A stretch of 37,615 bases of DNA from a virus. Lineage: Duplodnaviria > Heunggongvirae > Uroviricota > Caudoviricetes. The stretch lies in IMG/VR virus record IMGVR_UViG_2681813321_000019, one strand, 5' to 3'. Of the stretch, positions 1 to 20,209 are shown piece after piece. The notes under the pieces were generated by a model. That model saw nothing but the letters and a program-made list of their open reading frames with translations, did not search any database and had not been told where the DNA came from. The translations under genes and the position numbers were made by a program. The first letter of the stretch is position 1; each line of letters opens with the position of its first letter.

Positions 1-171
1 ACTGCAATGGCTTCAATCAGTCTGATTCAGCTGAAATTGCAGGCCGGACGTAAACTGACGCAGGCAGAAACAACCAGCCTTAACACTGTGCTGGATTACA
101 TTGACGCGGTGACGGCAACAGATACCAGCACCGCGCCGGATGTCATCTTGCCTGAACTGCCGGAGGCGTAG
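1..171 (+). CDS. tfa: Tail fibre assembly protein (Tfa), 3' fragment cut by window edge; C-terminus ...LPELPEA
   Basis: Frame 1 translation [37 protein letters not shown]...PELPEA* is identical to the C-terminus of the 200-aa Tfa at 19607..20209. Confidence 0.6.
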   Translation, partial: TAMASISLIQLKLQAGRKLTQAETTSLNTVLDYIDAVTATDTSTAPDVILPELPEA

Positions 172-583
172 GCCATTCAATATCTGGCGCACTGGCGGTA
201 TCGACCAGCTCCAGTGCGTCCAGATAATCCAGCCACAAATTATATTGTGCCAGTTCCCCACCTTTCAGACGACCAATAGCTGCTTTACCAGGCCATTGCT
301 TACCGTTCATGTAATCATTGGCTAAATCTATTCTTTTTTGCTTCTCCACATCAGCAGCGACAATTAATTCTTCTCGTGTAGGTGGAGGAATATCACCCCA
401 TGCTGGCATGTTATTTAAAGTTATAAGTTGCTTACCTGTAGGGGGAGTGCCGGAAAACTCATAATAAATACTGTCACTAACGTTAATGGCATCATGTGGC
501 CAACAATTATTATCAACATAATCAGCCTGCCACTCGATGGCATAAAAACGGGACTCAGATGGACTGAACACAAAACGATTCAT
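143..583 (-). CDS. Alternative tail fibre assembly protein (Tfa'), 146 aa
   Basis: C-terminal LDYLDALELVDTASAPDIEWP motif parallels the Tfa C-terminus; lies immediately downstream of the alternative fibre cassette Sv'; its 3' end overlaps the convergent tfa 3' end. Confidence 0.7.
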   Translation of the reverse strand: MNRFVFSPSESRFYAIEWQADYVDNNCWPHDAINVSDSIYYEFSGTPPTGKQLITLNNMPAWGDIPPPTREELIVAADVEKQKRIDLANDYMNGKQWPGKAAIGRLKGGELAQYNLWLDYLDALELVDTASAPDIEWPTPPAVQAR

Positions 584-584
584 A

Positions 585-893
585 TTAATATCCTATAGCT
601 AAAAACATAGCGTCTGAGGTGTTTGTATTTACAGCAATATTCATCATGACCTGAGCGGTAAATCCTGTATTGCTTACCCACTCGCATGAGTTAGTTATCT
701 GAACCCATGTTAATTTGGTAGAAAAAACGCCCCAGCAATTAACAGGGAACGGGACAGGGAAAGTCACTGGCACAGAATTTACTACACCGACAGTAGTCAA
801 ATTTGCGAGCGTCCGGCGAAACACCTGAATCTTAAGACCATCAGGACCTGTAAATAACAAATTATCGGTGTACTGCCCGCTTGCTCTTAAACC
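585..893 (-). CDS. Sv' alternative tail-fibre C-terminal cassette (promoterless and silent in this orientation)
   Basis: ORF begins at the crossover site next to pin; the first 16 codons of the ORF-track entry (MMPFARYFCIFINVGL) are read-through antisense to the pin leader. Stop is 1 nt before the tfa' start. Confidence 0.55.
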   Translation of the reverse strand, partial: GLRASGQYTDNLLFTGPDGLKIQVFRRTLANLTTVGVVNSVPVTFPVPFPVNCWGVFSTKLTWVQITNSCEWVSNTGFTAQVMMNIAVNTNTSDAMFLAIGY

Positions 894-907
894 AACGTTT
901 ATGAAAA
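882..907. promoter_or_regulatory. Pin/Hin/Gin-type recombination crossover site (pin-proximal); TGCTCTTAAACC-AA-CGTTTATGAAAA
   Basis: 26-bp imperfect dyad with central AA, resembling hix half-sites (TTCTTGAAAACC / GGTTTTTGATAA); sits about 55 bp upstream of pin. Confidence 0.6.
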
Positions 908-961
908 TGCAGAAATAACGAGCAAATGGCATCATTCCTGCTTTTGTCAGGGAGATCTACC

Positions 962-1516
962 ATGCTTATTGGCTATGTACGTGTGTCAACAAATGACCAG
1001 AACACAGATCTACAACGTAATGCGCTGAACTGTGCAGGATGCGAGCTGATTTTTGAAGACAAGATAAGCGGTACAAAGTCCGAAAGGCCGGGACTGAAAA
1101 AACTGCTCAGGACATTATCGGCAGGCGATACGCTGGTGGTCTGGAAACTGGACCGACTGGGGCGCAGTATGCGGCATCTTGTCGTGCTGGTGGAGGAGTT
1201 GCGCGAACGAGGCATCAACTTTCGTAGTCTGACGGATTCAATTGATACCAGTACCCCAATGGGGCGCTTTTTCTTTCATGTGATGGGGGCCCTGGCTGAA
1301 ATGGAACGAGAACTGATTGTTGAACGAACAAAAGCTGGACTGGAAGCTGCTCGCGCACAGGGACGAATTGGTGGACGTCGTCCCAAACTTACACCAGAAC
1401 AATGGGCACAAGCCGGACGATTAATTGCATCAGGAGTTCCGCGCCAGAAAGTTGCGATTATCTATGATGTTGGCGTATCGACTTTGTATCAGAGGTTTCC
1501 GGCAGGAGATAAATAA
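962..1516 (+). CDS. pin: Serine DNA invertase, Pin/Gin/Hin/Cin family (184 aa from MLIGYVRVSTNDQ)
   Basis: N-terminal MLIGYVRVSTNDQ with catalytic Ser in RVSTNDQ, resolvase core, C-terminal HTH (VAIIYDVGVSTLYQRF); GGGAGA RBS upstream of the ATG at 962. ORF-track start at 926 rejected. Confidence 0.9.
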   Translation: MLIGYVRVSTNDQNTDLQRNALNCAGCELIFEDKISGTKSERPGLKKLLRTLSAGDTLVVWKLDRLGRSMRHLVVLVEELRERGINFRSLTDSIDTSTPMGRFFFHVMGALAEMERELIVERTKAGLEAARAQGRIGGRRPKLTPEQWAQAGRLIASGVPRQKVAIIYDVGVSTLYQRFPAGDK

Positions 1517-1714
1517 AGACACAGCTCGTCGAATTCAAGAACGTGTGAGCCAATCTCATGATGATTCATTATTTTCACATAGAGTCAATGACAAAAAACG
1601 GCTGCAAGGTAAACCACAACGATGGCTTTATTAATTGATAGCGGTTTTGGTACTAAATGATACAAATTAAAATGAATATCCTAGTGAATTACAACAATTT
1701 CAGGAGGAAATAGT

Positions 1715-1927
1715 ATGCCAAGAAAAACGCTAGAAAATTTGGTAAATGTTGCACGTCAGACTCAGGAAATAGCGGATAAGAGAAGCCGTTTTTTCGGGTA
1801 TCTTGAACAGCATGGCTTGAAGAGGAATGAGGATAGTGCTCACCTTTTTGCTATGCATTTACGGTTGCAACACAATGAAAGAGATAATCTTGTCCATGAA
1901 CTGATGTCCGGATTACATCATAAATAG
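1715..1927 (+). CDS. Hypothetical small protein (70 aa), cargo cassette
   Basis: Strong RBS (AGGAGG then ATG); AT-rich context; convergent with the 114-aa gene; no recognisable family. Confidence 0.5.
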   Translation: MPRKTLENLVNVARQTQEIADKRSRFFGYLEQHGLKRNEDSAHLFAMHLRLQHNERDNLVHELMSGLHHK

Positions 1928-1962
1928 TGCATCATTCGAGCAAGAATATTATAAGACAATAA

Positions 1963-1983
1963 ACCAGCCAAAAACTGGCTGGT
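1963..1983. terminator. Bidirectional hairpin between convergent 70-aa and 114-aa genes
   Basis: ACCAGCC-loop-GGCTGGT stem, flanked by T/A runs. Confidence 0.4.
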
Positions 1984-2011
1984 TGAACGTTAACTTTTTG
2001 AATTTAATCAA

Positions 2012-2356
2012 TTAACTTTGGTGTATGTCTTGGTAAGTCTCATCCGTCAGAGCCAATTTCATGCAAATATCATCGTTAAGACTGACAATATCTTCGATCA
2101 GTTTATTGATCTCGAAATCGTTAAGTTTTGATACTGTTGCTTGAACTCGCCCCTCATCGCCAGTGGCATCAAACTTAGTCAGTTCCTTACATAATTCATC
2201 GAACCTGCTTTGTAAGGCATTTGGAATATCATCGGCTGTTTTAAGATGCCCAAGGCTAAAAACATACGAATTAATCAAGCGTTCTTGAATACTTCCATGG
2301 CCCGCAAGAGTAAGTACTGCAGTATGAAATTTTTCATGTGCATACTTTAAGGACAT
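2012..2356 (-). CDS. Hypothetical acidic protein (114 aa), second gene of cargo operon
   Basis: GGAGA RBS 6 nt upstream; 51 bp downstream of the 343-aa gene on the same strand; D/E-rich; no recognisable family. Confidence 0.6.
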   Translation of the reverse strand: MSLKYAHEKFHTAVLTLAGHGSIQERLINSYVFSLGHLKTADDIPNALQSRFDELCKELTKFDATGDEGRVQATVSKLNDFEINKLIEDIVSLNDDICMKLALTDETYQDIHQS

Positions 2357-2407
2357 ATCTGGTCTCCGTGACTTATAACCTCAACCGACATAAATGGGGT
2401 TAAGTGA

Positions 2408-3439
2408 TTATTCTGAAACAATAGTGTTGAACTGACCTATAGAAACAGCACCCTTTTCAATTACCTCTAAGTAACTGATTTTAATATGAGAGTTGTTTGA
2501 CAAAGCGTCAACAATAGCTGTCAACTCATCTTGGGTGATAACATCAGCTGAAGCTTTGATTGTGAAGCATTCGTCATTAGAGACCCTAACAACGTTAATA
2601 TTAATATCCTGATTTGTTGGCCCTGTTCTGGTTACACCTTTGATGGAAAATATATCAGTTCGTTCTTTACGTTCTCTATCTACAGATTGTCGGCTGTTGT
2701 AGGTATTTAGGTCTTGTCGTGTTAGTTTCTCATTTCCTAAAGTCACGGTTTCGACAGTAGGATCAGCAGCTAATTGCTTCACTAAAGCACTTTTACCTGC
2801 TTGTCCGTGACTAGTAACTTTATCGCTAATCGCTGATTTCCCATAGATTTTATAATCTAATGTTGCTTCTATGGCTTTGTTTATGCCATCGGATGTGGTT
2901 TTTGCAATTTCAACCTGCCGATCAGTTGCATGTCTTTCTGTTACGGCATTTTCTGAAATGTAGTGATAACCACATGTGCTGGCCGCGCCAACCATTGTGA
3001 TTATAACAAGCATTTTCTGCCAGCCGTTCAGTCCAGACATAGTATCTCGCAAAAAATCAGTTACTGCGTTGATGATCTTGTCAGTGGTGCCTTCCGCATC
3101 ACTAGAACCTTCGCTAATTTTAAAATTTATATCAAGTCGTTGCTTGTCTTCATTAGTCAAGCGTTGAAGATTCTGCGATCCGTATCGTATGGTTGCAAAC
3201 GCCCGCTGTATCTCCTCGTTGAGCATTGACATACCAAACAACATTGCTGATGTAATTGATGAATGATACCGCTCTCCTTTTACATTTATGTCTAAGGATG
3301 GCCAGCCTGCAAACTTTACGTTAGGGAAAATAAACTCTTTAGAATCAAGCCCCTCTCGGGCTTTCATTTCTTCCAGAAAGTTTAGAAAATCATCTTCACT
3401 ACGGATCAGAAAATCAATCGAATCCACAGTAGCTTCCAT
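2408..3439 (-). CDS. Hypothetical single-pass membrane protein (343 aa), first gene of cargo operon
   Basis: AAGGA RBS; one hydrophobic helix near residues 141-160 (KMLVIITMVGAASTCGYHYI) between two soluble domains; AT-rich; no P-loop or other recognisable motif. Confidence 0.7.
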   Translation of the reverse strand: MEATVDSIDFLIRSEDDFLNFLEEMKAREGLDSKEFIFPNVKFAGWPSLDINVKGERYHSSITSAMLFGMSMLNEEIQRAFATIRYGSQNLQRLTNEDKQRLDINFKISEGSSDAEGTTDKIINAVTDFLRDTMSGLNGWQKMLVIITMVGAASTCGYHYISENAVTERHATDRQVEIAKTTSDGINKAIEATLDYKIYGKSAISDKVTSHGQAGKSALVKQLAADPTVETVTLGNEKLTRQDLNTYNSRQSVDRERKERTDIFSIKGVTRTGPTNQDININVVRVSNDECFTIKASADVITQDELTAIVDALSNNSHIKISYLEVIEKGAVSIGQFNTIVSE

Positions 3440-3484
3440 ATGAATATCCTTATTAAATTCTCATTCGGTTACTGTTTATTGTTG

Positions 3485-3520
3485 ACTGATCAATAAAAAA
3501 GCCCGCAATTTGCGGGCTTC
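3485..3520 (-). terminator. Rho-independent terminator downstream of ssrA, upstream of the 343-aa gene
   Basis: AAGCCCGCAA-TT-TGCGGGCTT stem followed by a T-run on the minus strand. Confidence 0.5.
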
Positions 3521-3648
3521 TTTCACACTTGAGAGCCGCGGCTCCTTTGCGTATCCTTTTTTGTCTCCTCACCGTCTGGTCGGTGTCCTGCTGAGACTGC
3601 TAACTTCCTGTTTTTGTTGGTGTTGTCCTTACACCGTCCAATCATGAT

Positions 3649-4011
3649 TGGTGGAGCTGGCGGGAGTTGAACCCGCGTCCGAAATTCCTACATCCTCGGT
3701 ACTACATGCTTAGTCAGTCTTTACATTCGCTTGCCAGCTGCGGACGGACACGCCACTAACAAACTAGCCTGATTAAGTTTTAACGCTTCAACCCCAGGCA
3801 GGGCTTCCACGCGATCTCTTTTGGGTTTGACCTCTCTTGATCCCCGTCCTAAGAGCGGAGGCTAGGGAGAGAGGGCTCTAAGCAGGTTATTAAGCTGCTA
3901 AAGCGTAGTTTTCGTCGTTTGCGACTATTTTTTGCGGCTTTTTACGAGGCCAACCGCCCCTCGGCATGCACCTTGGGTTTCGCAAATCCCGTCGAATCCA
4001 GAATCAGCCCC
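3649..4011 (-). ncRNA. ssrA: tmRNA (SsrA), 363 nt
   Basis: Reverse complement begins GGGGCTGATTCTGGATTCGACGGG and ends CCAGCTCCACCA; tag reading frame GCAAACGACGAAAACTACGCTTTAGCAGCTTAA (ANDENYALAA) at 3891..3923. Confidence 0.95.
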
Positions 4012-5596: not shown

Positions 5597-5603
5597 CAGA
5601 CAG

Positions 5604-6147: not shown

Positions 6148-7705
6148 TTACGCTGCAAGCAGTTCTTTCGCATTCGCCAGTGTATTACGTGTGACTTCAC
6201 TGCCACCAAGCAGGCGCGCCAGCTCTTGTAACCGCGCTTTTTTATTCAGGGATTGCATATGCGTTTCTGTCATCGCACCATCGGTTTCTTTGCTGACAAA
6301 ATAGTGTTGATGACCACATCCCGCGACTTGTGGCAGGTGGGTAACACACATCACCTGAGTTGATTCGCCGAGTTGACGCAGCAGTTTGCCGACAACTGCC
6401 GCTGTTGGACCGCTAATCCCTACATCCACTTCATCAAAAATCAGTGCCGGGGTTTCCATTTTACGCGCCGTGATGACCTGGATTGCCAGTGCGATGCGGG
6501 ACAATTCACCACCGGATGCGACTTTGGCAATAGGCTGCATTGGCTGACCTGGGTTGGTGGTTACCCGAAACTCAATACGATCGGCACCGTCAGCGCCCAG
6601 GTGATGCTCGTCAAATTTAACATCGATCGTAAACTGCCCATGCGGCATTGAGAGCGCATGCATACTGTCGGTGATCAGCTGTGCAAGTTCTTCTGCATAT
6701 TGCTGGCGTTGTTGGTGTAATGCGCGCGCGATTTCCAGTGCCTGCTGATGATGTTTCGTTACCGCCAGCGCAAGCGTTTCTTGTGAGTCGGCCTGATCGT
6801 CCAGTTGCTGCTGTTCTTCCAGTAGCGACTGGTAATACTGTGGCAATGCCTCAGGGCTGACGTGATGTTTACGTGCCAGCGAAATCTGTTTTGAGATGCG
6901 CTGTTCAAGTTCAAATAGTCGGTTGGGATCGAGATCCAGACGATCGCAGTAGTGGCGCAGTTCATCGCTGGCTTCAGCAATCTGGATGGTAGCTTCTTCC
7001 AGCATATCAAGTACGCCGGACAGTTTGCTGTCCATGCCAATCAATTCGCTCACCAGTTGTTTAGCCGTGTAAAGCTGACTTTGCAGGTTTGCGTCTTCAC
7101 CGTCGGCCATTAATGCCAATGCATTCTGGCTGGTGGTCAGCAATTGACCGCTGTTCGCCAGACGTTTGTACTCTTCGTCGATTTGTTCAAACTCTCCGGG
7201 CTGCGGATTAAATTCGTTAAGTTCTTTTAATTGGTATTGCAGCAGTTCCGCACGGGCAGCGCGTTCCTGACTTAACTGTTGATGATGCGCGAGGTCACGG
7301 CAGCTTTGATGCCACAACTGATAACGTGCTGTCATTTCCTGGAGTAGAGAGGTTTCATTGGCATAGCCATCAAGCAGGAACTTTTGGTGCTCGGGTTTGG
7401 TGAGTAACTGATGAGCGTGCTGACCATGGATCTGAATCAGCAACTGACCCAGTTCGCGCAGTTGTGACAGAGGAACAGCTGTACCGTTGATGAAACCACG
7501 GGAGCGACCATCGCTGCTGATCACGCGACGAAGCAAACATTCATGCCCGTCTTCAAGCTGGTTTTCTTCCAGCCAGCGCAGAGCCGCTGGCGTATCTTTC
7601 AGAGAAAAACGGGCGCACAGGTCAGCGCGAGCAGCGCCGGTACGCACCATGTCGGCTTCAGCGCGACCACCGAGACAAAGACCGAGGGCATCTATTGCAA
7701 TAGAT
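6148..7705 (-). pseudogene. recN: recN 5'-truncated copy (lacks about the first 35 codons including most of Walker A); ends at breakpoint J1
   Basis: Identical to the 3' 1558 nt of full recN at 13977..15638; identity stops at 7705, where tfa sequence is joined. Confidence 0.85.
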
Positions 7706-7706
7706 A

Positions 7707-8222
7707 GTTAAGGCTGGTTGTTTCTGCCTGCGTCAGTTTACGTCCGGCCTGCAATTTCAGCTGAATCAGACTGATTGAAGCCATTGCAGTATCAATCAGT
7801 GACTGGCGCTGTGCTTCTGCTGCATCTACTGCGGCGCTATGCTGTGCTTCGGTATCCGTCACCCATTTCTCACCATCCCATTTATCGTATGGCGTTAACG
7901 GGGCGATAGTGGTTGTATTATCAGGGTAATCACCCGGAGCTGTGATTTCTTTTGATTCTCCTGTTTCGGTGCTAAAGACGATTTCACCGCGATGGTCTGG
8001 CACATATTCCCATGAGTTAAAATCTACAGATCGGCAGATTGCATAACCAGCTTTGTATGTGCCAGGGGCATCTAAACAGGAATATGCAGGGATACCGACA
8101 CCCACAGCAAGATATTCAGTTGATGTGGAAATATATTCCCGTGTTTCGCCATCATAGTTATAGACGGTAATATTCCCCGCCTTTGTAGCAATAAACTCGC
8201 TATTTAATACAGCGTTATCCAT
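7707..8222 (-). pseudogene. tfa: tfa, 3'-truncated at breakpoint J1 (codons 1..about 171), flipped-state copy
   Basis: Protein identical to Tfa (19607..20209) up to ...TTSLN, then reads into recN antisense (YLLQ*); two synonymous nucleotide differences from the 19607..20209 copy. Confidence 0.65.
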
Positions 8223-8722
8223 TATGCAGCCCTCACGATATAGTTAAATGCAATATTCCGTGGACGGGTTTCATTTATCCCATATGCTGTTGTTCTCTGA
8301 TTCCCGACAAAATATCCATTTGGATTAGAAGATACATAATAATCATCAAAATCAAGTGGGCTATCAGCACCCGGCGTCAGGCTTGCAATATATCCTCTTC
8401 CCATAACTTCTGATGCTGGTATTTCTTTTGTACGATAATCACTAACTCTGAAGAGCTGCCCTTGGTGGGTGTGTGATTCCACTCCTCCATTCTGAAGACT
8501 TAGCAAGGCACGTACAGCATCAATACCACGCCCGTCATCCCAGCCACGAATAAACTCACCACGTAAATCAGGCAATTTATTTGTCGGATAAGCCTTTGCC
8601 AGTTCCGGGTATTCTTCAGCAGAAAAAGCGGCACCGTTGCATTTCAGCCAGCCTGTCGGCGGAGTGGCGGAAGGCCACGGAACAGGCACACCAACAGGTA
8701 ATGCAGAGCCTTCTCCCAAACC
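8222..8722 (-). CDS. Sv tail-fibre C-terminal cassette in the flipped orientation (next to pin, detached from Sc)
   Basis: Sequence [20 protein letters not shown]... identical to the C-terminal 160 aa of S (20209..21000), but its 5' junction carries the pin-side half-site. Confidence 0.6.
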   Translation of the reverse strand, partial: GLGEGSALPVGVPVPWPSATPPTGWLKCNGAAFSAEEYPELAKAYPTNKLPDLRGEFIRGWDDGRGIDAVRALLSLQNGGVESHTHQGQLFRVSDYRTKEIPASEVMGRGYIASLTPGADSPLDFDDYYVSSNPNGYFVGNQRTTAYGINETRPRNIAFNYIVRAA

Positions 8723-8736
8723 AACGTTTATGAAAA
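8711..8736. promoter_or_regulatory. Hybrid crossover site (inversion product); TTCTCCCAAACC-AA-CGTTTATGAAAA
   Basis: Left half is identical to the S-side site (20698..20709); right half is identical to the pin-side site (896..907). Confidence 0.6.
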
Positions 8737-8790
8737 TGCAGAAATAACGAGCAAATGGCATCATTCCTGCTTTTGTCAGGGAGATCTACC

Positions 8791-9345
8791 ATGCTTATTG
8801 GCTATGTACGTGTGTCAACAAATGACCAGAACACAGATCTACAACGTAATGCGCTGAACTGTGCAGGATGCGAGCTGATTTTTGAAGACAAGATAAGCGG
8901 TACAAAGTCCGAAAGGCCGGGACTGAAAAAACTGCTCAGGACATTATCGGCAGGCGATACGCTGGTGGTCTGGAAACTGGACCGACTGGGGCGCAGTATG
9001 CGGCATCTTGTCGTGCTGGTGGAGGAGTTGCGCGAACGAGGCATCAACTTTCGTAGTCTGACGGATTCAATTGATACCAGTACCCCAATGGGGCGCTTTT
9101 TCTTTCATGTGATGGGGGCCCTGGCTGAAATGGAACGAGAACTGATTGTTGAACGAACAAAAGCTGGACTGGAAGCTGCTCGCGCACAGGGACGAATTGG
9201 TGGACGTCGTCCCAAACTTACACCAGAACAATGGGCACAAGCCGGACGATTAATTGCATCAGGAGTTCCGCGCCAGAAAGTTGCGATTATCTATGATGTT
9301 GGCGTATCGACTTTGTATCAGAGGTTTCCGGCAGGAGATAAATAA
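8791..9345 (+). CDS. pin: Serine DNA invertase Pin (copy B)
   Basis: Identical to 962..1516. Confidence 0.9.
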   Translation: MLIGYVRVSTNDQNTDLQRNALNCAGCELIFEDKISGTKSERPGLKKLLRTLSAGDTLVVWKLDRLGRSMRHLVVLVEELRERGINFRSLTDSIDTSTPMGRFFFHVMGALAEMERELIVERTKAGLEAARAQGRIGGRRPKLTPEQWAQAGRLIASGVPRQKVAIIYDVGVSTLYQRFPAGDK

Positions 9346-9543
9346 AGACACAGCTCGTCGAATTCAAGAACGTGTGAGCCAATCTCATGATGATTCATTA
9401 TTTTCACATAGAGTCAATGACAAAAAACGGCTGCAAGGTAAACCACAACGATGGCTTTATTAATTGATAGCGGTTTTGGTACTAAATGATACAAATTAAA
9501 ATGAATATCCTAGTGAATTACAACAATTTCAGGAGGAAATAGT

Positions 9544-9756
9544 ATGCCAAGAAAAACGCTAGAAAATTTGGTAAATGTTGCACGTCAGACTCAGGAAATA
9601 GCGGATAAGAGAAGCCGTTTTTTCGGGTATCTTGAACAGCATGGCTTGAAGAGGAATGAGGATAGTGCTCACCTTTTTGCTATGCATTTACGGTTGCAAC
9701 ACAATGAAAGAGATAATCTTGTCCATGAACTGATGTCCGGATTACATCATAAATAG
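9544..9756 (+). CDS. Hypothetical 70-aa protein (copy B)
   Basis: Identical to 1715..1927. Confidence 0.5.
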   Translation: MPRKTLENLVNVARQTQEIADKRSRFFGYLEQHGLKRNEDSAHLFAMHLRLQHNERDNLVHELMSGLHHK

Positions 9757-9840
9757 TGCATCATTCGAGCAAGAATATTATAAGACAATAAACCAGCCAA
9801 AAACTGGCTGGTTGAACGTTAACTTTTTGAATTTAATCAA

Positions 9841-10185
9841 TTAACTTTGGTGTATGTCTTGGTAAGTCTCATCCGTCAGAGCCAATTTCATGCAAATATC
9901 ATCGTTAAGACTGACAATATCTTCGATCAGTTTATTGATCTCGAAATCGTTAAGTTTTGATACTGTTGCTTGAACTCGCCCCTCATCGCCAGTGGCATCA
10001 AACTTAGTCAGTTCCTTACATAATTCATCGAACCTGCTTTGTAAGGCATTTGGAATATCATCGGCTGTTTTAAGATGCCCAAGGCTAAAAACATACGAAT
10101 TAATCAAGCGTTCTTGAATACTTCCATGGCCCGCAAGAGTAAGTACTGCAGTATGAAATTTTTCATGTGCATACTTTAAGGACAT
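9841..10185 (-). CDS. Hypothetical acidic 114-aa protein (copy B)
   Basis: Identical to 2012..2356. Confidence 0.6.
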   Translation of the reverse strand: MSLKYAHEKFHTAVLTLAGHGSIQERLINSYVFSLGHLKTADDIPNALQSRFDELCKELTKFDATGDEGRVQATVSKLNDFEINKLIEDIVSLNDDICMKLALTDETYQDIHQS

Positions 10186-10236
10186 ATCTGGTCTCCGTGA
10201 CTTATAACCTCAACCGACATAAATGGGGTTAAGTGA

Positions 10237-11268
10237 TTATTCTGAAACAATAGTGTTGAACTGACCTATAGAAACAGCACCCTTTTCAATTACCTCTAAG
10301 TAACTGATTTTAATATGAGAGTTGTTTGACAAAGCGTCAACAATAGCTGTCAACTCATCTTGGGTGATAACATCAGCTGAAGCTTTGATTGTGAAGCATT
10401 CGTCATTAGAGACCCTAACAACGTTAATATTAATATCCTGATTTGTTGGCCCTGTTCTGGTTACACCTTTGATGGAAAATATATCAGTTCGTTCTTTACG
10501 TTCTCTATCTACAGATTGTCGGCTGTTGTAGGTATTTAGGTCTTGTCGTGTTAGTTTCTCATTTCCTAAAGTCACGGTTTCGACAGTAGGATCAGCAGCT
10601 AATTGCTTCACTAAAGCACTTTTACCTGCTTGTCCGTGACTAGTAACTTTATCGCTAATCGCTGATTTCCCATAGATTTTATAATCTAATGTTGCTTCTA
10701 TGGCTTTGTTTATGCCATCGGATGTGGTTTTTGCAATTTCAACCTGCCGATCAGTTGCATGTCTTTCTGTTACGGCATTTTCTGAAATGTAGTGATAACC
10801 ACATGTGCTGGCCGCGCCAACCATTGTGATTATAACAAGCATTTTCTGCCAGCCGTTCAGTCCAGACATAGTATCTCGCAAAAAATCAGTTACTGCGTTG
10901 ATGATCTTGTCAGTGGTGCCTTCCGCATCACTAGAACCTTCGCTAATTTTAAAATTTATATCAAGTCGTTGCTTGTCTTCATTAGTCAAGCGTTGAAGAT
11001 TCTGCGATCCGTATCGTATGGTTGCAAACGCCCGCTGTATCTCCTCGTTGAGCATTGACATACCAAACAACATTGCTGATGTAATTGATGAATGATACCG
11101 CTCTCCTTTTACATTTATGTCTAAGGATGGCCAGCCTGCAAACTTTACGTTAGGGAAAATAAACTCTTTAGAATCAAGCCCCTCTCGGGCTTTCATTTCT
11201 TCCAGAAAGTTTAGAAAATCATCTTCACTACGGATCAGAAAATCAATCGAATCCACAGTAGCTTCCAT
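10237..11268 (-). CDS. Hypothetical 343-aa single-TM protein (copy B)
   Basis: Identical to 2408..3439. Confidence 0.7.
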   Translation of the reverse strand: MEATVDSIDFLIRSEDDFLNFLEEMKAREGLDSKEFIFPNVKFAGWPSLDINVKGERYHSSITSAMLFGMSMLNEEIQRAFATIRYGSQNLQRLTNEDKQRLDINFKISEGSSDAEGTTDKIINAVTDFLRDTMSGLNGWQKMLVIITMVGAASTCGYHYISENAVTERHATDRQVEIAKTTSDGINKAIEATLDYKIYGKSAISDKVTSHGQAGKSALVKQLAADPTVETVTLGNEKLTRQDLNTYNSRQSVDRERKERTDIFSIKGVTRTGPTNQDININVVRVSNDECFTIKASADVITQDELTAIVDALSNNSHIKISYLEVIEKGAVSIGQFNTIVSE

Positions 11269-11477
11269 ATGAATATCCTTATTAAATTCTCATTCGGTTA
11301 CTGTTTATTGTTGACTGATCAATAAAAAAGCCCGCAATTTGCGGGCTTCTTTCACACTTGAGAGCCGCGGCTCCTTTGCGTATCCTTTTTTGTCTCCTCA
11401 CCGTCTGGTCGGTGTCCTGCTGAGACTGCTAACTTCCTGTTTTTGTTGGTGTTGTCCTTACACCGTCCAATCATGAT

Positions 11478-11840
11478 TGGTGGAGCTGGCGGGAGTTGAA
11501 CCCGCGTCCGAAATTCCTACATCCTCGGTACTACATGCTTAGTCAGTCTTTACATTCGCTTGCCAGCTGCGGACGGACACGCCACTAACAAACTAGCCTG
11601 ATTAAGTTTTAACGCTTCAACCCCAGGCAGGGCTTCCACGCGATCTCTTTTGGGTTTGACCTCTCTTGATCCCCGTCCTAAGAGCGGAGGCTAGGGAGAG
11701 AGGGCTCTAAGCAGGTTATTAAGCTGCTAAAGCGTAGTTTTCGTCGTTTGCGACTATTTTTTGCGGCTTTTTACGAGGCCAACCGCCCCTCGGCATGCAC
11801 CTTGGGTTTCGCAAATCCCGTCGAATCCAGAATCAGCCCC
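11478..11840 (-). ncRNA. ssrA: tmRNA (SsrA), copy B
   Basis: Identical to 3649..4011. Confidence 0.95.
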
Positions 11841-12054
11841 AATGTGTAAAGGTAAGTATACCAGATTTATGAGCGCCATGACCAGCCTCAATGGCGTTAT
11901 CGTTAAAGATTTAGCACCCATGTAGCCTGATTTTTATTCGATTAAGCAATGGGATGGCAACATTTGTGTCGGATGTGATAGCCAATAAGATGTTCATTCG
12001 CGCCGCCGGAGAGGGAGGCGCGGTGAGGAACTGGTCAATAATTGGAGTGCAGGT

Positions 12055-12537
12055 TTAACGGTGGGCGTTTTTCATGATACGTGCTTTATCCACCTGCCAT
12101 TCGCGTTCTTTGATATCTGAACGTTTATCGTGCTGTTTTTTACCTTTGGCGACGCCGATTTTCACTTTGCACCAGGCATTTTTCCAGTACAGGGAGAGCG
12201 CCACTACGGTATAGCCTTCTCGATTGACGCGACCGTACAATGAGTCCAGTTCGCGTTGGTTGAGAAGTAACTTGCGGGTACGGGTAGGATCGCACACCAC
12301 ATGCGTGGAGGCCACGGCCATTGGCGTGATGTTAGCGCCAAACAGAAATGCCTCTCCGTCACGCAGAAGGACGTAGCTGTCGCTGATATTGGCTTTTCCT
12401 GCGCGCAGGGATTTAACCTCCCAGCCTTGCAGGGCAAGTCCCGCTTCGAACTCTTCTTCGATAAAGTATTCGTGACGGGCGCGCTTGTTAAGCGCGATGG
12501 TCGCTGAACCAGGTTTATGTGCTTTTTTCTTCGTCAT
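12055..12537 (-). CDS. smpB: SmpB (copy B)
   Basis: Identical to 4226..4708. Confidence 0.95.
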
Positions 12538-12668
12538 AAGCGTCGTGAATCATCGGTAATCTGAAATCGAAAACACCCCATATCAATCCTGCGGGGGACA
12601 AGGCTCTATCTTAGCATGAACCCGATGTTACCCAGCGCCGGGATAGCGTTTTTTTTACAGCAGGATAA

Positions 12669-13145
12669 ATGATATTATTTGTTGGATTTTTGTTGATGGA
12701 AATTGTTATGCCTCAGATTAGCCGGACCGCACTGGTACCCTACAGCGCGGAGCAAATGTATCAGTTAGTGAATGACGTTCAGTCTTATCCTCAGTTTTTG
12801 CCGGGTTGTACCGGAAGTCGGATTCTGGAGTCCACTCCTGGGCAGATGACTGCGGCGGTAGATGTCTCTAAGGCTGGGATCAGCAAAACGTTTACTACCC
12901 GCAACCAGTTGACCAGTAACCAAAGTATTCTTATGAATCTGGTGGATGGGCCGTTCAAGAAATTGATTGGTGGATGGAAGTTTACGCCGCTGAGCCAGGA
13001 GGCGTGTCGTATCGAGTTTCATCTCGACTTTGAGTTTACCAATAAGTTGATTGAACTCGCCTTTGGTCGCGTGTTTAAAGAGCTGGCGTCTAATATGGTC
13101 CAGGCTTTTACGGTTCGTGCGAAAGAGGTTTACAGTGCCAGGTAA
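12669..13145 (+). CDS. ratA: RatA (copy B)
   Basis: Identical to 4840..5316. Confidence 0.85.
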
Positions 13146-13425
13146 AATTGCCGTTGAGGTGGCTTATGCGCTACCTGAGAAGCAGTACCTGCAGCGCGTG
13201 ACGCTGCAGGAGGGCGCGACGGTTGAAGAAGCTATTCGCGCCAGTGGCTTGCTGGAATTGCGTACCGATATCGATTTAACTAAAAACAAAGTCGGCATTT
13301 ACAGCCGTCCGGCAAAACTAAGCGATAGTGTGCATGATGGCGATCGGGTGGAGATTTATCGCCCTCTCATTGCCGATCCGAAAGAGCTTCGCAGGCAACG
13401 AGCAGAAAAATCAGCGAATAAATAA
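13135..13425 (+). CDS. ratB: RatB / YfjF (copy B)
   Basis: Identical to 5306..5596. Confidence 0.75.
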
Positions 13426-13486
13426 CAGACAGAAAAAAGGTGCTCATTGAGCACCTTTTTTAACGTCTTTGAGAGCAACTTTATTA

Positions 13487-13828
13487 TTAGTTACCACTCA
13501 GCGCAGGTTTGTTATCAATATTGGTCAACACACCGCTACTGTTAAAGGTCAGCGTCAGCGTTTGCTGCGTTACACCTTCATGACCTGGTTGCTGGCGGAA
13601 GACATAGAACCAGGTATTCGTACCAAATGGATCGGACATCAGCGGTGTACCCAATGCGTACGCAACTTGTTGTTGCGTCATGCCAACACGTATTTTGGAT
13701 ACGTCGTTAGCGGTCAGATAGTTCCCCTGGTTGATGTCAGGACGGTAAACCACTCGCTCCAGAGTGGAACAGCCTGCGGTCAACATCAATAGTACTGCTG
13801 CTGCAGCAGTCAGCGTTTTACAGCGCAT
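13487..13828 (-). CDS. bamE: BamE (copy B)
   Basis: Identical to 5658..5999. Confidence 0.9.
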
Positions 13829-13976
13829 AGTGATTTGATTCCTTTTCGGGCCCGAGCAGTACGTGGCTCATCTGTAATATGCCGATGATAATAGACCTTT
13901 CATCACTTTAAAACCTTTTGCTTTCCGGTCTTACGGCGTTTTGCTGTTTACTCTGACCGTGAAGCAGGAAAAAAGT

Positions 13977-15638
13977 TTACGCTGCAAGCAGTTCTTTCGC
14001 ATTCGCCAGTGTATTACGTGTGACTTCACTGCCACCAAGCAGGCGCGCCAGCTCTTGTAACCGCGCTTTTTTATTCAGGGATTGCATATGCGTTTCTGTC
14101 ATCGCACCATCGGTTTCTTTGCTGACAAAATAGTGTTGATGACCACATCCCGCGACTTGTGGCAGGTGGGTAACACACATCACCTGAGTTGATTCGCCGA
14201 GTTGACGCAGCAGTTTGCCGACAACTGCCGCTGTTGGACCGCTAATCCCTACATCCACTTCATCAAAAATCAGTGCCGGGGTTTCCATTTTACGCGCCGT
14301 GATGACCTGGATTGCCAGTGCGATGCGGGACAATTCACCACCGGATGCGACTTTGGCAATAGGCTGCATTGGCTGACCTGGGTTGGTGGTTACCCGAAAC
14401 TCAATACGATCGGCACCGTCAGCGCCCAGGTGATGCTCGTCAAATTTAACATCGATCGTAAACTGCCCATGCGGCATTGAGAGCGCATGCATACTGTCGG
14501 TGATCAGCTGTGCAAGTTCTTCTGCATATTGCTGGCGTTGTTGGTGTAATGCGCGCGCGATTTCCAGTGCCTGCTGATGATGTTTCGTTACCGCCAGCGC
14601 AAGCGTTTCTTGTGAGTCGGCCTGATCGTCCAGTTGCTGCTGTTCTTCCAGTAGCGACTGGTAATACTGTGGCAATGCCTCAGGGCTGACGTGATGTTTA
14701 CGTGCCAGCGAAATCTGTTTTGAGATGCGCTGTTCAAGTTCAAATAGTCGGTTGGGATCGAGATCCAGACGATCGCAGTAGTGGCGCAGTTCATCGCTGG
14801 CTTCAGCAATCTGGATGGTAGCTTCTTCCAGCATATCAAGTACGCCGGACAGTTTGCTGTCCATGCCAATCAATTCGCTCACCAGTTGTTTAGCCGTGTA
14901 AAGCTGACTTTGCAGGTTTGCGTCTTCACCGTCGGCCATTAATGCCAATGCATTCTGGCTGGTGGTCAGCAATTGACCGCTGTTCGCCAGACGTTTGTAC
15001 TCTTCGTCGATTTGTTCAAACTCTCCGGGCTGCGGATTAAATTCGTTAAGTTCTTTTAATTGGTATTGCAGCAGTTCCGCACGGGCAGCGCGTTCCTGAC
15101 TTAACTGTTGATGATGCGCGAGGTCACGGCAGCTTTGATGCCACAACTGATAACGTGCTGTCATTTCCTGGAGTAGAGAGGTTTCATTGGCATAGCCATC
15201 AAGCAGGAACTTTTGGTGCTCGGGTTTGGTGAGTAACTGATGAGCGTGCTGACCATGGATCTGAATCAGCAACTGACCCAGTTCGCGCAGTTGTGACAGA
15301 GGAACAGCTGTACCGTTGATGAAACCACGGGAGCGACCATCGCTGCTGATCACGCGACGAAGCAAACATTCATGCCCGTCTTCAAGCTGGTTTTCTTCCA
15401 GCCAGCGCAGAGCCGCTGGCGTATCTTTCAGAGAAAAACGGGCGCACAGGTCAGCGCGAGCAGCGCCGGTACGCACCATGTCGGCTTCAGCGCGACCACC
15501 GAGACAAAGACCGAGGGCATCTATTGCAATAGATTTACCCGCGCCGGTCTCGCCAGTTATTACGGTCATGCCGCTATGAAAATCAATCTCAAGCTCACGA
15601 ACGATAGCAAAGTTGCTGATGGTCAGTTGTGCCAACAT
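13977..15638 (-). CDS. recN: DNA repair protein RecN (553 aa, full length)
   Basis: [20 protein letters not shown]..., Walker [12 protein letters not shown]-like coiled coil. Confidence 0.95.
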
Positions 15639-15648
15639 AGTCGTTTTC

Positions 15649-15706
15649 CTGTATGAAAAACCATTACTGTTATTGTGTACAGTATAAACTGGTTTTATAT
15701 ACAGTA
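15649..15706 (-). promoter_or_regulatory. recN SOS operator region with tandem LexA boxes
   Basis: CTGT-N8-ACAG at 15667..15682 and CTGG-N8-ACAG at 15689..15704, immediately upstream of the recN start. Confidence 0.6.
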
Positions 15707-15723
15707 AAGAGGCTGGCGTAAAA

Positions 15724-16602
15724 TTAGAATAATTTTTTTGACCAGCCGAGCTTGGTGCTTAATGTGTTGAAATAACTGTAATCTTTCGGATGAATCAGAT
15801 TCAGATGGTAATCACAGCGACGAATCAGGACATCTTCACCTTCCTGAATCGGCAGTGCTATCTGGCTGTCGCAACTGATTTCTAGGTCGTTACGGCGATG
15901 CGAAAAACGCAGACGGATCGTGCTGCTGCTGTTTATGACCAGTGGTCGTGCTGACAACGTATGCGGGAACATGGGCACCAGGGTAATCGCATCCAGAGAG
16001 GGGGTCAGAATAGGACCGCCTGCAGAGAGGGAATAGGCGGTGGAGCCTGTTGGCGTCGAAATAATTAGTCCATCAGATCGCTGAGAAAACGCAAAGATCT
16101 CGTCGATATACACTTCGAACTCAATCATATGCGCCACTTTGCCTGGATGAAGCACCACTTCATTTATCGCGGTGCTGATGCGTTTCTGACAATCTTGCTG
16201 ACAGACTTGCGCTTCCAGCAAAAAACGTTTCTCGCTGATGTAGTGGCCTTCCAGCACATCGGCTAACTGTTGCTGGGCGTTATCGGGGTCAAGGTCAGTC
16301 AGGAAACCCAGGTTGCCACGGTTGATTCCAATAACTTTAATATCGTAACGGGCGAGTGTGCGTGCCGCGCCCAGCATATTACCGTCGCCACCAACGACTA
16401 CCGCGAGATCAGCTAGTTGCCCAATCTCCGCGAGCGTGCCAGTTTTCACATTCTTCAGTTGCAGTTCGTGAGCGATTTGTTGCTCAACGATGACCTCGTA
16501 ACCTTTTGTGCACAGCCAGCGGTAGAGCATTTCATGTGTTGTCAGTGCAGTGGGGTGCCGTGGGTGTCCCACAATGCCAATACACTTGAAATGATTATTC
16601 AT
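15724..16602 (-). CDS. nadK: NAD kinase (292 aa)
   Basis: GGDGN motif ([13 protein letters not shown]) and NAD-kinase fold signature; divergent from grpE. Confidence 0.9.
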
Positions 16603-16691
16603 TTTTCCGAGGTCCTTGTTGCGAAGATTGATGACAATGTGAGTGCTTCCCTTGAAACCCTGAAACTGATCCCCATAATAAGCGAAGTTAG

Positions 16692-17370
<679 letters not shown>

Positions 17371-17421
17371 TCACTTAACCCCATTTATGTCGGTTGAGGT
17401 TATAAGTCACGGAGACCAGAT

Positions 17422-17766
17422 ATGTCCTTAAAGTATGCACATGAAAAATTTCATACTGCAGTACTTACTCTTGCGGGCCATGGAAGTATTCAAGAACGCT
17501 TGATTAATTCGTATGTTTTTAGCCTTGGGCATCTTAAAACAGCCGATGATATTCCAAATGCCTTACAAAGCAGGTTCGATGAATTATGTAAGGAACTGAC
17601 TAAGTTTGATGCCACTGGCGATGAGGGGCGAGTTCAAGCAACAGTATCAAAACTTAACGATTTCGAGATCAATAAACTGATCGAAGATATTGTCAGTCTT
17701 AACGATGATATTTGCATGAAATTGGCTCTGACGGATGAGACTTACCAAGACATACACCAAAGTTAA
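17422..17766 (+). CDS. Hypothetical acidic 114-aa protein (copy C)
   Basis: Reverse complement of 2012..2356. Confidence 0.6.
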   Translation: MSLKYAHEKFHTAVLTLAGHGSIQERLINSYVFSLGHLKTADDIPNALQSRFDELCKELTKFDATGDEGRVQATVSKLNDFEINKLIEDIVSLNDDICMKLALTDETYQDIHQS

Positions 17767-17850
17767 TTGATTAAATTCAAAAAGTTAACGTTCAACCAGC
17801 CAGTTTTTGGCTGGTTTATTGTCTTATAATATTCTTGCTCGAATGATGCA

Positions 17851-18063
17851 CTATTTATGATGTAATCCGGACATCAGTTCATGGACAAGATTATCTCTTT
17901 CATTGTGTTGCAACCGTAAATGCATAGCAAAAAGGTGAGCACTATCCTCATTCCTCTTCAAGCCATGCTGTTCAAGATACCCGAAAAAACGGCTTCTCTT
18001 ATCCGCTATTTCCTGAGTCTGACGTGCAACATTTACCAAATTTTCTAGCGTTTTTCTTGGCAT
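17851..18063 (-). CDS. Hypothetical 70-aa protein (copy C)
   Basis: Reverse complement of 1715..1927. Confidence 0.5.
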   Translation of the reverse strand: MPRKTLENLVNVARQTQEIADKRSRFFGYLEQHGLKRNEDSAHLFAMHLRLQHNERDNLVHELMSGLHHK

Positions 18064-18261
18064 ACTATTTCCTCCTGAAATTGTTGTAATTCACTAGGAT
18101 ATTCATTTTAATTTGTATCATTTAGTACCAAAACCGCTATCAATTAATAAAGCCATCGTTGTGGTTTACCTTGCAGCCGTTTTTTGTCATTGACTCTATG
18201 TGAAAATAATGAATCATCATGAGATTGGCTCACACGTTCTTGAATTCGACGAGCTGTGTCT

Positions 18262-18816
18262 TTATTTATCTCCTGCCGGAAACCTCTGATACAAAGTCGA
18301 TACGCCAACATCATAGATAATCGCAACTTTCTGGCGCGGAACTCCTGATGCAATTAATCGTCCGGCTTGTGCCCATTGTTCTGGTGTAAGTTTGGGACGA
18401 CGTCCACCAATTCGTCCCTGTGCGCGAGCAGCTTCCAGTCCAGCTTTTGTTCGTTCAACAATCAGTTCTCGTTCCATTTCAGCCAGGGCCCCCATCACAT
18501 GAAAGAAAAAGCGCCCCATTGGGGTACTGGTATCAATTGAATCCGTCAGACTACGAAAGTTGATGCCTCGTTCGCGCAACTCCTCCACCAGCACGACAAG
18601 ATGCCGCATACTGCGCCCCAGTCGGTCCAGTTTCCAGACCACCAGCGTATCGCCTGCCGATAATGTCCTGAGCAGTTTTTTCAGTCCCGGCCTTTCGGAC
18701 TTTGTACCGCTTATCTTGTCTTCAAAAATCAGCTCGCATCCTGCACAGTTCAGCGCATTACGTTGTAGATCTGTGTTCTGGTCATTTGTTGACACACGTA
18801 CATAGCCAATAAGCAT
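18262..18816 (-). CDS. pin: Serine DNA invertase Pin (copy C)
   Basis: Reverse complement of 962..1516. Confidence 0.9.
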   Translation of the reverse strand: MLIGYVRVSTNDQNTDLQRNALNCAGCELIFEDKISGTKSERPGLKKLLRTLSAGDTLVVWKLDRLGRSMRHLVVLVEELRERGINFRSLTDSIDTSTPMGRFFFHVMGALAEMERELIVERTKAGLEAARAQGRIGGRRPKLTPEQWAQAGRLIASGVPRQKVAIIYDVGVSTLYQRFPAGDK

Positions 18817-18870
18817 GGTAGATCTCCCTGACAAAAGCAGGAATGATGCCATTTGCTCGTTATTTCTGCA

Positions 18871-18896
18871 TTTTCATAAACGTTGGTTTAAGAGCA
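18871..18896. promoter_or_regulatory. Pin-proximal crossover site (copy C)
   Basis: TTTTCATAAACG-TT-GGTTTAAGAGCA, reverse complement of 882..907. Confidence 0.6.
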
Positions 18897-19193
18897 AGCG
18901 GGCAGTACACCGATAATTTGTTATTTACAGGTCCTGATGGTCTTAAGATTCAGGTGTTTCGCCGGACGCTCGCAAATTTGACTACTGTCGGTGTAGTAAA
19001 TTCTGTGCCAGTGACTTTCCCTGTCCCGTTCCCTGTTAATTGCTGGGGCGTTTTTTCTACCAAATTAACATGGGTTCAGATAACTAACTCATGCGAGTGG
19101 GTAAGCAATACAGGATTTACCGCTCAGGTCATGATGAATATTGCTGTAAATACAAACACCTCAGACGCTATGTTTTTAGCTATAGGATATTAA
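18885..19193 (+). CDS. Sv' alternative tail-fibre C-terminal cassette (silent orientation)
   Basis: Reverse complement of 585..893. Confidence 0.55.
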   Translation, partial: GLRASGQYTDNLLFTGPDGLKIQVFRRTLANLTTVGVVNSVPVTFPVPFPVNCWGVFSTKLTWVQITNSCEWVSNTGFTAQVMMNIAVNTNTSDAMFLAIGY

Positions 19194-19194
19194 T

Positions 19195-19635
19195 ATGAAT
19201 CGTTTTGTGTTCAGTCCATCTGAGTCCCGTTTTTATGCCATCGAGTGGCAGGCTGATTATGTTGATAATAATTGTTGGCCACATGATGCCATTAACGTTA
19301 GTGACAGTATTTATTATGAGTTTTCCGGCACTCCCCCTACAGGTAAGCAACTTATAACTTTAAATAACATGCCAGCATGGGGTGATATTCCTCCACCTAC
19401 ACGAGAAGAATTAATTGTCGCTGCTGATGTGGAGAAGCAAAAAAGAATAGATTTAGCCAATGATTACATGAACGGTAAGCAATGGCCTGGTAAAGCAGCT
19501 ATTGGTCGTCTGAAAGGTGGGGAACTGGCACAATATAATTTGTGGCTGGATTATCTGGACGCACTGGAGCTGGTCGATACCGCCAGTGCGCCAGATATTG
19601 AATGGCCTACGCCTCCGGCAGTTCAGGCAAGATGA
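19195..19635 (+). CDS. Alternative tail fibre assembly protein Tfa' (146 aa)
   Basis: Reverse complement of 143..583. Confidence 0.7.
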   Translation: MNRFVFSPSESRFYAIEWQADYVDNNCWPHDAINVSDSIYYEFSGTPPTGKQLITLNNMPAWGDIPPPTREELIVAADVEKQKRIDLANDYMNGKQWPGKAAIGRLKGGELAQYNLWLDYLDALELVDTASAPDIEWPTPPAVQAR

Positions 19636-20209
19636 CATCCGGCGCGGTGCTGGTATCTGTTGCCGTCACCGCGTCAATGTAATCCAGCACAGTGTTAAGG
19701 CTGGTTGTTTCTGCCTGCGTCAGTTTACGTCCGGCCTGCAATTTCAGCTGAATCAGACTGATTGAAGCCATTGCAGTATCAATCAGTGACTGGCGCTGTG
19801 CTTCTGCTGCATCTACTGCGGCGCTATGCTGTGCTTCGGTATCCGTCACCCATTTCTCACCATCCCATTTATCGTATGGCGTTAACGGGGCGATAGTGGT
19901 TGTATTATCAGGGTAATCACCCGGAGCTGTGATTTCTTTTGATTCTCCTGTTTCGGTGCTAAAGACGATTTCACCGCGATGGTCTGGCACATATTCCCAT
20001 GAGTTAAAATCTACAGATCGGCAGATTGCATAACCAGCTTTGTATGTGCCAGGGGCATCTAAACAGGAATATGCAGGGATACCGACACCAACGGCAAGAT
20101 ATTCAGTTGATGTGGAAATATATTCCCGTGTTTCGCCATCATAGTTATAGACGGTAATATTCCCCGCCTTTGTAGCAATAAACTCGCTATTTAATACAGC
20201 GTTATCCAT
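19607..20209 (-). CDS. tfa: Tail fibre assembly protein Tfa (200 aa), expressed orientation
   Basis: Start overlaps the S stop; conserved Tfa C-terminal domain. Confidence 0.8.
   Translation of the reverse strand: MDNAVLNSEFIATKAGNITVYNYDGETREYISTSTEYLAVGVGIPAYSCLDAPGTYKAGYAICRSVDFNSWEYVPDHRGEIVFSTETGESKEITAPGDYPDNTTTIAPLTPYDKWDGEKWVTDTEAQHSAAVDAAEAQRQSLIDTAMASISLIQLKLQAGRKLTQAETTSLNTVLDYIDAVTATDTSTAPDVILPELPEA

Follow-up and report, generated by a model that had tools for sequence, protein, structure and literature searches.

The window, a stretch of 37,615 nt, consists of three pieces separated by single bases at 7706 (J1) and 16825 (J2). The first piece, here called contig A (1..7705, plus strand), runs from the middle of an invertible tail-fibre segment in its state 1 through pin, open reading frames (ORFs) of 70, 114 and 343 aa, ssrA, smpB, ratA, yfjF and bamE to codon 35 of recN, with gene identities taken from the RefSeq annotation of collinear genomes. 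Contig B (7707..16824, plus strand) starts in the middle of the same segment, now flipped (state 2), repeats the genes of contig A and continues through full recN and nadK into grpE, which it leaves at codon 34. Contig C (16826..37615, minus strand) comprises an SfV-like late region from terS to the tail fibre and the complete invertible segment in state 1, together with pin and the two smaller ORFs (70 and 114 aa); of the 343-aa gene it has the C-terminal 181 codons. Consequently, the tmRNA gene ssrA is found on the minus strand at 3649..4011 with a second copy at 11478-11840, and pin, located at 18262..18816 on the minus strand, recurs in identical form at 962-1516 and 8791-9345 on the plus strand.

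The three pieces overlap extensively. The first-pass annotation had described positions 889-7705 (plus strand) as identical to 8718-15534 and positions 1-2952 (plus strand) as the reverse complement of 16826-19777, and both descriptions were confirmed: the direct repeat, in which contigs A and B overlap, spans 6817 nt without a mismatch and cannot be extended at either end, and the inverted repeat, the overlap of contigs A and C, spans 2952 nt, likewise without a mismatch. The copies differ solely from the crossover site of the invertible segment onward and follow each other in the order direct-direct-inverted. The breakpoints had also been read correctly, with J1 joining mid-recN (codon 35) to mid-tfa (codon 172), J2 joining grpE codon 34 to the middle of the 343-aa gene, reached at codon 163, and neither junction showing microhomology. 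A recombinase site, said to be missing, is indeed absent from J1 and J2, but the left edge of the direct repeat (889/8718) does involve one, as it falls within a 26-bp invertase crossover site that had been overlooked. Two further correspondences had escaped notice. Positions 7707-8729 match 19694-20716 at 99.7%, and positions 1-84 are the reverse complement of 7707-7790; the starts of contigs A and B thus share exactly 84 nt, which they reach from the two sides of the segment, in the manner of neighbouring edges in an assembly graph. An overlap of this length would predict a k-mer size of 85.

Comparison with the public E. coli record CYBF01000057.1 (GCA_001285025.1; 37,615 nt) revealed that window and record have the same length and differ at only two bases, 7706 and 16825, where an A of the window stands for an N of the record; the part from 18664 to 37615 contains no N in the record and is identical to the window. 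The two single bases previously called unassignable are, hence, Ns at the source, which makes J1 and J2 unsequenced scaffold gaps of one base and the fragments three overlapping contigs. By convention, scaffolders write one N for a gap predicted to be of zero or negative length; the literature searched contained no usable statement on this convention. Looking up the chimeric ORFs that run across the junctions yielded no match and, as the record carries N there, its gene products presumably differ from ours at that residue. A look-up of the 180-aa ORF of state 2 did lead to the record.

The invertible segment itself (18884..20710, about 1.8 kb) occurs in either orientation, both within the window and among sibling contigs. 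It contains a 146-aa Tfa (19195-19635, plus strand), a 200-aa Tfa (19607-20209, minus strand) and the C-terminal part of a 263-aa fibre (20209-21000, minus strand); an alternative fibre C-terminus is listed with it at 18843-19193 on the plus strand. Pfam models for Collar, Gp53-like_C and Caudo_TAP match within the segment, which other short-read assemblies have as a contig by itself (L014, L015). The adjoining pin encodes a 184-aa serine DNA invertase with Resolvase (PF00239) and HTH_7 (PF02796) domains, which matches the pinE product annotated by RefSeq in strain XH990 at 100% identity. Two 26-bp crossover sites, inverted relative to each other and sharing the same core (...AAACC-AA-...), flank the segment in contig C: a pin-proximal site at 18871..18896, reading TGCTCTTAAACC-AA-CGTTTATGAAAA on the minus strand, and a distal site at 20698..20723, reading TTCTCCCAAACC-AA-GGTTTTCGAGAG on the plus strand. 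The contig A copy of the proximal site lies at 882-907. The distal site is located inside the tail-fibre coding sequence (ENLGLGEG), so that inversion exchanges the C-terminus of the fibre (263-aa versus 199-aa product) together with its Tfa chaperone.

Contigs A and C carry the segment in state 1 and contig B carries it in the opposite orientation. The contig B site (8711-8736) reads TTCTCCCAAACC-AA-CGTTTATGAAAA and is exactly the left half of the distal site joined to the right half of the proximal site in contig C. Being the exact recombinant of these two sites, it indicates that two template populations were present. The Pin-type invertible segment is genuine and was held in both orientations by the sequenced culture. 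It is a member of a long-known family, the Hin/Gin/Cin/Pin serine-invertase host-range switches, and its own two states are well documented here. With the G segment of Mu, the C segment of P1 and the P segment of e14 it shares the Resolvase and HTH_7 invertase adjoining a segment of about 1.8 kb, inverted 26-bp sites with an AA core, a distal site inside the tail-fibre gene, the occurrence of both states and the reciprocal recombinant site. Unlike in Mu, P1 and e14, the switch resides here in an SfV-like prophage with a Mu-type tail beside ssrA, which constitutes no essential difference.

The near-identical sibling assembly L011 (CYAG01000031.1) carries it as a simple single-copy locus, and the complete genomes of XH990 and PEC122 each contain one collinear copy. 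When compared with these references, all three fragments were colinear with one simple locus, as had been proposed. Contig A is 100% identical to L011 positions 10433-18137, the contig B part 8718-16824 is 100% identical to 11321-19427, and the contig C part 16826-30209 differs from 1-13384 by 2 mismatches. In addition, contig B matches R2, a reference with the segment flipped, across all 9118 nt, and contig C is 98% identical to SfV 55-16974. Two other siblings, CYAN01000050.1 and CYAU01000062.1, represent other mosaics of the same locus with a single N at every join, and in the CYAN assembly 4,025 nt of the same sequence is present on two scaffolds. No GenBank phage record and none of 5,426 complete E. 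coli genomes spans either junction, 36-mers across the junctions had no exact match in viral, metagenome or GTDB collections, and a literature search for the accessions found no citing paper. GenBank records labelled 'phage' or 'plasmid' that contain recN, nadK and smpB (NC_049342.1, CP019275.1) proved to represent P2-like prophages plus flanking host DNA, a different element.

The 6.8-kb direct repeat and the 2.95-kb inverted repeat are not the result of a genomic rearrangement. Rather, the window is almost certainly a mis-scaffolded draft-assembly record of a chromosome that is not rearranged. The earlier suggestion that an assembly had been mis-joined, or fragments concatenated, around a phase-variable segment is supported by the Ns in the record, the single-copy sibling locus and the two Pin states. 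Three contigs of one ordinary single-copy E. coli locus, ordered as SfV-like prophage late genes, Pin-invertible tail-fibre segment, pin, ssrA, smpB, recN, nadK and grpE, were placed on one scaffold with one-base N gaps between them. Their overlap stems from the presence of both segment orientations in the culture that was sequenced. The assembler would have built one arm from segment to host flank per orientation (contig A for state 1, contig B for state 2) as well as the phage-side contig C and left them uncollapsed; the scaffolder would then have placed the alternative versions in series, and the Ns were turned into A during preparation of the window. Why the assembler kept redundant arms and joined the pieces in this order we infer; simple paired-end logic does not account for the inverted join at J2.

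This layout is a bacterial counterpart of the 'heterotype' false duplications described by Ko et al. (2022, PMC9516828), for which a gap between duplicated copies on one scaffold is a hallmark. In both cases, two versions of one locus lie adjacent on a scaffold with an intervening assembly gap, identical common parts and truncated or chimeric gene models. In contrast to the diploid parental alleles in that study, the 'haplotypes' are here the two orientations of an invertible segment in a clonal culture, and the window has an additional third, inverted piece.

Inspection of the contig ends revealed a feature overlooked earlier: contigs A and B each stop exactly where a perfect palindrome ends. 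In contig A, this is the 16-nt palindrome ATCTATTGCAATAGAT (7690..7705), which is native to recN, and in contig B the 12-nt palindrome CAGAAGCTTCTG (16813..16824), native to grpE. With a further palindrome, CCTGCGCGCAGG, near ssrA in CYAN, perfect palindromes are found at three of the ten gap-flanking contig ends (p ~1e-8). Past each of the two palindromes in the window, the sequence jumps by 6-8 kb and does not fold back. The arms may have stopped there at strand-switch graph edges arising from fold-back library artefacts.

Snap-back rearrangements in Salmonella and E. coli can start from short palindromes, and tandem inversion duplications at such palindromes are a model of amplification in these species. 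We weighed whether the strain truly carries a complex ssrA-recN amplification with direct and inverted copies, both junctions of which the assembler failed to read. In its favour, the host-side ends adjacent to the gaps both lie at short perfect palindromes, sibling assemblies likewise carry rearranged scaffolds at this locus, and the scaffolder must have had a linking signal of some kind. Direct and inverted copies of one small region that end at short perfect palindromes are also what tandem inversion duplications comprise. However, J1 and J2 are both N with no sequence across either, the copies show zero divergence, and their direct-direct-inverted order does not fit the direct-inverted-direct order of a tandem inversion duplication, nor does the junction structure; this mechanism was rejected. 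Moreover, the near-identical siblings are each joined differently, always via N, with one of them showing the plain locus, and either junction is absent from all complete genomes searched. Besides intact copies, the strain would have to carry a truncated recN and a duplicated ssrA and, as contig B holds only half of the segment, flipped, a second template state would be needed on top of the amplification. The real tandem or inverted amplification that the first-pass annotation had left open is, hence, without support, with no sequence crossing the junctions and no other genome having them, and we consider it very improbable. There is a similarly slim chance that the palindrome ends and the recurrent strand-switching joins in several siblings reflect real minority DNA species, partly captured by the assembler, and not computation alone; such DNA might have arisen by fold-back or template switching at short palindromes where cells over-replicate the prophage-flanking region.

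Explanations by which the pieces were joined in a tube or on a computer fare worse still. The window could be one physical chimeric molecule, such as a concatemer from dA-tailed ligation, an MDA template-switch chimera, a chimeric long read or a packaged or cloned insert of about 37 kb. An A as filler at both junctions of the window was initially taken as a hint of A-tailed ends, the three pieces all derive from one 27-kb locus, and the length of 37,615 nt is close to that of the SfV genome (37,074), with the right end near the phage left end. Yet, the filler bases are N in the record, so that a chimeric molecule is left with no junction sequence at all, and ligation of dA-tailed fragments, inferred from the A fillers and the missing microhomology, was discarded on this ground. 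The Ns and the perfect identity of the copies, which reflects consensus rather than single-read quality, equally dismiss an MDA or long-read chimera, and the at least 57 contigs of the assembly are typical of short-read data. A packaged or cloned phage-sized molecule was rejected as well, as the window stops 54 nt before the left end of SfV is reached, and sibling contig L013 continues straight past the point where it stops. All in all, a chimeric molecule is extremely unlikely. The same holds for a mosaic created during preparation of the window, for instance by concatenating separate sequences: the N-to-A changes at 7706 and 16825 did arise between the public record and the window, but the three pieces already stand in this arrangement, over 37,615 nt, in the record. 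Window preparation accounts for these two changes only.

For the mis-scaffolded record, the main value of these results lies in data hygiene. The record presents false gene duplications: ssrA, smpB and bamE appear twice, pin three times, and the 343-aa gene twice in full and once in part. Truncated or chimeric models arise from it as well, namely a 500-aa RecN, a 176-aa Tfa-RecN fusion, a 43-aa GrpE stub and a 187-aa fragment of the 343-aa protein, and such false models can enter protein databases and pangenome counts. More generally, false duplications in draft assemblies of bacteria can be foreseen where phase-variable segments invert. Replacing N by A in sequence windows, in turn, hides scaffold gaps and mimics non-templated junction bases. 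A third hidden N had been suspected at position 24826, which proved to be a true synonymous SNP.

Comparison of the window with its source record, the E. coli draft scaffold CYBF01000057.1 (GCA_001285025.1), the whole of which was covered by two loci, revealed differences at two positions only, 7706 (J1) and 16825 (J2), which read N in the record and A in the window. Because the record is N at both, each of these bases is a scaffold gap of one base, the fragments correspond to three contigs (A, 1-7705, plus strand; B, 7707-16824, plus strand; C, 16826-37615, minus strand), and no sequenced DNA crosses either junction. The first-pass annotation, made from the sequence only, had called both nucleotides unassignable; it placed them correctly, but they are not real bases. 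A third hidden N, suspected at 24826, turned out to be a real synonymous SNP. In an exact protein look-up, a 180-aa ORF present only in the arrangement of contig B matched CYBF01000057.1, which like the window is 37,615 nt long. Probes of 601 nt with J1 or J2 at their midpoint were searched against 5,426 complete E. coli genomes: matches always stopped at the junction, with no hit covering as much as 80% of a probe; 36-mers spanning the junctions had no exact match in IMG/VR, JGI metagenomes or GTDB representative genomes, and no GenBank phage record spans either. Across these collections, both junctions are unique to CYBF01000057.1.

The repeat geometry described in the same annotation was reproduced to the base. 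Positions 889-7705 equal 8718-15534 over 6,817 identical nucleotides, without one base of extension on either side, and 16826-19777 is the perfect reverse complement of 1-2952. At J1 (7705/7707), recN breaks off at codon 35 and a tail-fibre assembly gene (tfa, 200 aa) takes over at its codon 172; at J2 (16824/16826), grpE breaks off at codon 34 and an ORF of 343 aa takes over at codon 163. Microhomology is absent at both. Self-comparison added two relations that had gone unreported: 7707-8729 matches 19694-20716 at 99.7%, and 7707-7790 (equal to 19694-19777) is the reverse complement of 1-84.

The sequence is that of E. coli, and complete genomes (strains XH990 and PEC122) carry one collinear copy: SfV-like late genes from terminase to baseplate, a tail fibre with two convergent tfa genes, pinE, ORFs of 70, 114 and 343 aa, then ssrA, smpB, ratA, yfjF, bamE, recN, nadK and grpE. 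The phage portion is 98% identical to SfV 55-16974. In the window, ARAGORN found two copies of the tmRNA gene ssrA (3649-4011 and 11478-11840). The three ORFs between pin and ssrA (2012-3439 and 1715-1927, with copies in B and C) are hypothetical in RefSeq, had no Pfam match and occupy the position of the SfV gtr and int genes. Between yfjF and bamE, the window's self-match also showed a 29-nt near-perfect palindrome (5604-5632, copy 13433-13461), probably a bidirectional terminator.

An exact look-up of the 200-aa Tfa led to sibling NCBI drafts with neighbouring accessions (CYAG, CYAN, CYAU). One near-identical sibling, CYAG01000031.1, shows the plain, simple locus, being 100% identical to A and to 8718-16824 of B, with 2 mismatches to C in 13.4 kb. 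CYAN01000050.1 and CYAU01000062.1 are mosaics of the same locus with breakpoints other than those of the window and a single N at every join, and the CYAN assembly holds 4,025 nt of identical phage sequence on two scaffolds.

The contigs differ in the orientation of an invertible tail-fibre segment (about 18884-20710). In C, a distal 26-bp crossover site (20698-20723, TTCTCCCAAACC-AA-GGTTTTCGAGAG) and a proximal one (18871-18896, minus-strand sequence TGCTCTTAAACC-AA-CGTTTATGAAAA) lie in inverted relative orientation. The proximal site is unaltered in A (882-907), whereas B carries at 8711-8736 the hybrid TTCTCCCAAACC-AA-CGTTTATGAAAA, with the distal left half and the proximal right half exchanged at the central AA. 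The 6.8-kb repeat thus begins at no random place: its left edge falls at a crossover site. From its sequence, the hybrid is the product that would be expected of a Hin/Gin/Cin/Pin-type serine invertase; the adjoining 184-aa gene encodes Resolvase and HTH_7 domains, and its product is 100% identical to RefSeq pinE. Since the distal site lies within the fibre reading frame, the fibre encoded in state 1 has 263 aa and that in state 2 has 199 aa and another C-terminus, and either fibre has a Tfa partner of its own. The window's contigs include both orientations, as do the sibling assemblies, and the 1.8-kb segment forms an isolated contig in other short-read assemblies (L014, L015), which fits a mixed-orientation population. 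The switch region (18262-21000, pin-side copies at 882-1516 and 8711-9345), in an SfV-like prophage adjoining ssrA, looks functional, and one record captures both states and the exact reciprocal crossover site. The real biology here is this standard Pin-type tail-fibre switch, already known.

Because A and C are in state 1 and B in state 2, the read set held both orientations. The assembler made one arm per state, running from the segment to the host flank, and the scaffolder set the state-1 and state-2 arms in series; the CYAN scaffold has the same pattern, with the state-1 arm preceding the state-2 arm. An exact overlap of 84 nt, lying midway in the invertible segment and reached from opposite sides, is shared by the starts of contigs A and B and suggests adjacent edges or a vertex of a de Bruijn graph (k = 85). 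In the CYAN scaffold (L012 5785), the T of position 19777 is replaced by C and two more mismatches follow; a tfa paralogue belonging to another prophage may cause a branch there. The window matches the published account of false duplications, where one scaffold carries alternative forms of a single locus on either side of a gap (PMC9516828). Single-N gaps, a plain sibling locus and both inversion states support mis-assembly around a phase-variable segment, the reading already preferred at first pass, and the arrangement of 6.8-kb and 2.95-kb repeats is not real genome structure.

Genuine amplification of the region is, by comparison, very improbable: a tandem-inversion duplication fits neither the unsequenced joins, nor the copy order, nor the differing joins in near-identical isolates, and the same three observations do not fit an MDA or long-read chimera. 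Ligation of A-tailed fragments, first suggested by both filler bases being A, was ruled out by the record's N at both. A packaged molecule was suggested by the length (37,615 against 37,074 nt for SfV) and by the closeness of its right end to the left end of the phage; it was discarded, as the window stops 54 nt short of the SfV terminus and the sequence continues past this point in a sibling contig. Position 37615 corresponds to SfV 55, between an HNH gene and terS, and is read through by CYAU01000062.1 (8396-8450); the right end lies near a likely cos region, not at it.

The arms end at palindromes. The locus has a single perfect palindrome of 16 nt (7690-7705, recN, ATCTATTGCAATAGAT), and contig A stops at its final base; B stops at a perfect 12-nt palindrome in grpE (16813-16824, CAGAAGCTTCTG) and one CYAN contig at another of 12 nt (L012 5814-5825, CCTGCGCGCAGG). 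With 12 of 26,833 locus positions qualifying, the probability that three of ten gap-flanking contig ends fall at the exact end of a perfect palindrome of at least 12 nt is about 1e-8. Each of the three is the host-side end of an arm that begins in the invertible segment. Palindromes are documented sites of fold-back artefacts in sequencing libraries (PMC3946424). Strand-switch branches from such artefacts would arise exactly at a palindrome's last base and halt the graph walker there; such edges are the likeliest, suspected technical cause. The signature leaves the conclusion of mis-assembly unaffected.

The value of the case lies mainly in lessons for data curation and for the handling of Ns when windows are prepared. 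The mis-assembly produces truncated or chimeric gene models: a 500-aa RecN (6148-7650), a 176-aa Tfa whose tail is RecN-antisense-derived (7692-8222), a 43-aa GrpE stub (16725-16856) and a partial 343-aa protein (16826-17370); CYBF01000057.1 has gene calls of matching lengths (500, 176, 43 and 187 aa). The same error class, single-N joins of rearranged locus pieces, occurs in CYAN01000050.1 (L012/L017), CYAU01000062.1 (L013) and CYAN01000055.1 (L031), beside the 4 kb shared by two scaffolds of one sibling assembly, and the whole batch of sibling drafts probably needs re-assembly. GenBank 'phage' and 'plasmid' records holding recN, nadK and smpB proved to be P2-like prophages with host flank, unrelated to the element. 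The RefSeq 'complete phage genome' of Escherichia phage 500465-1 (NC_049342.1, 30338-39179), whose host flank continues via grpE to ffh, and the 37.4-kb 'plasmid' p13P477T-2 (CP019275.1, 32851-37446), with many frameshifts, both join such a prophage to several kilobases of host chromosome (smpB to recN, nadK) and look like mislabelled stray contigs.
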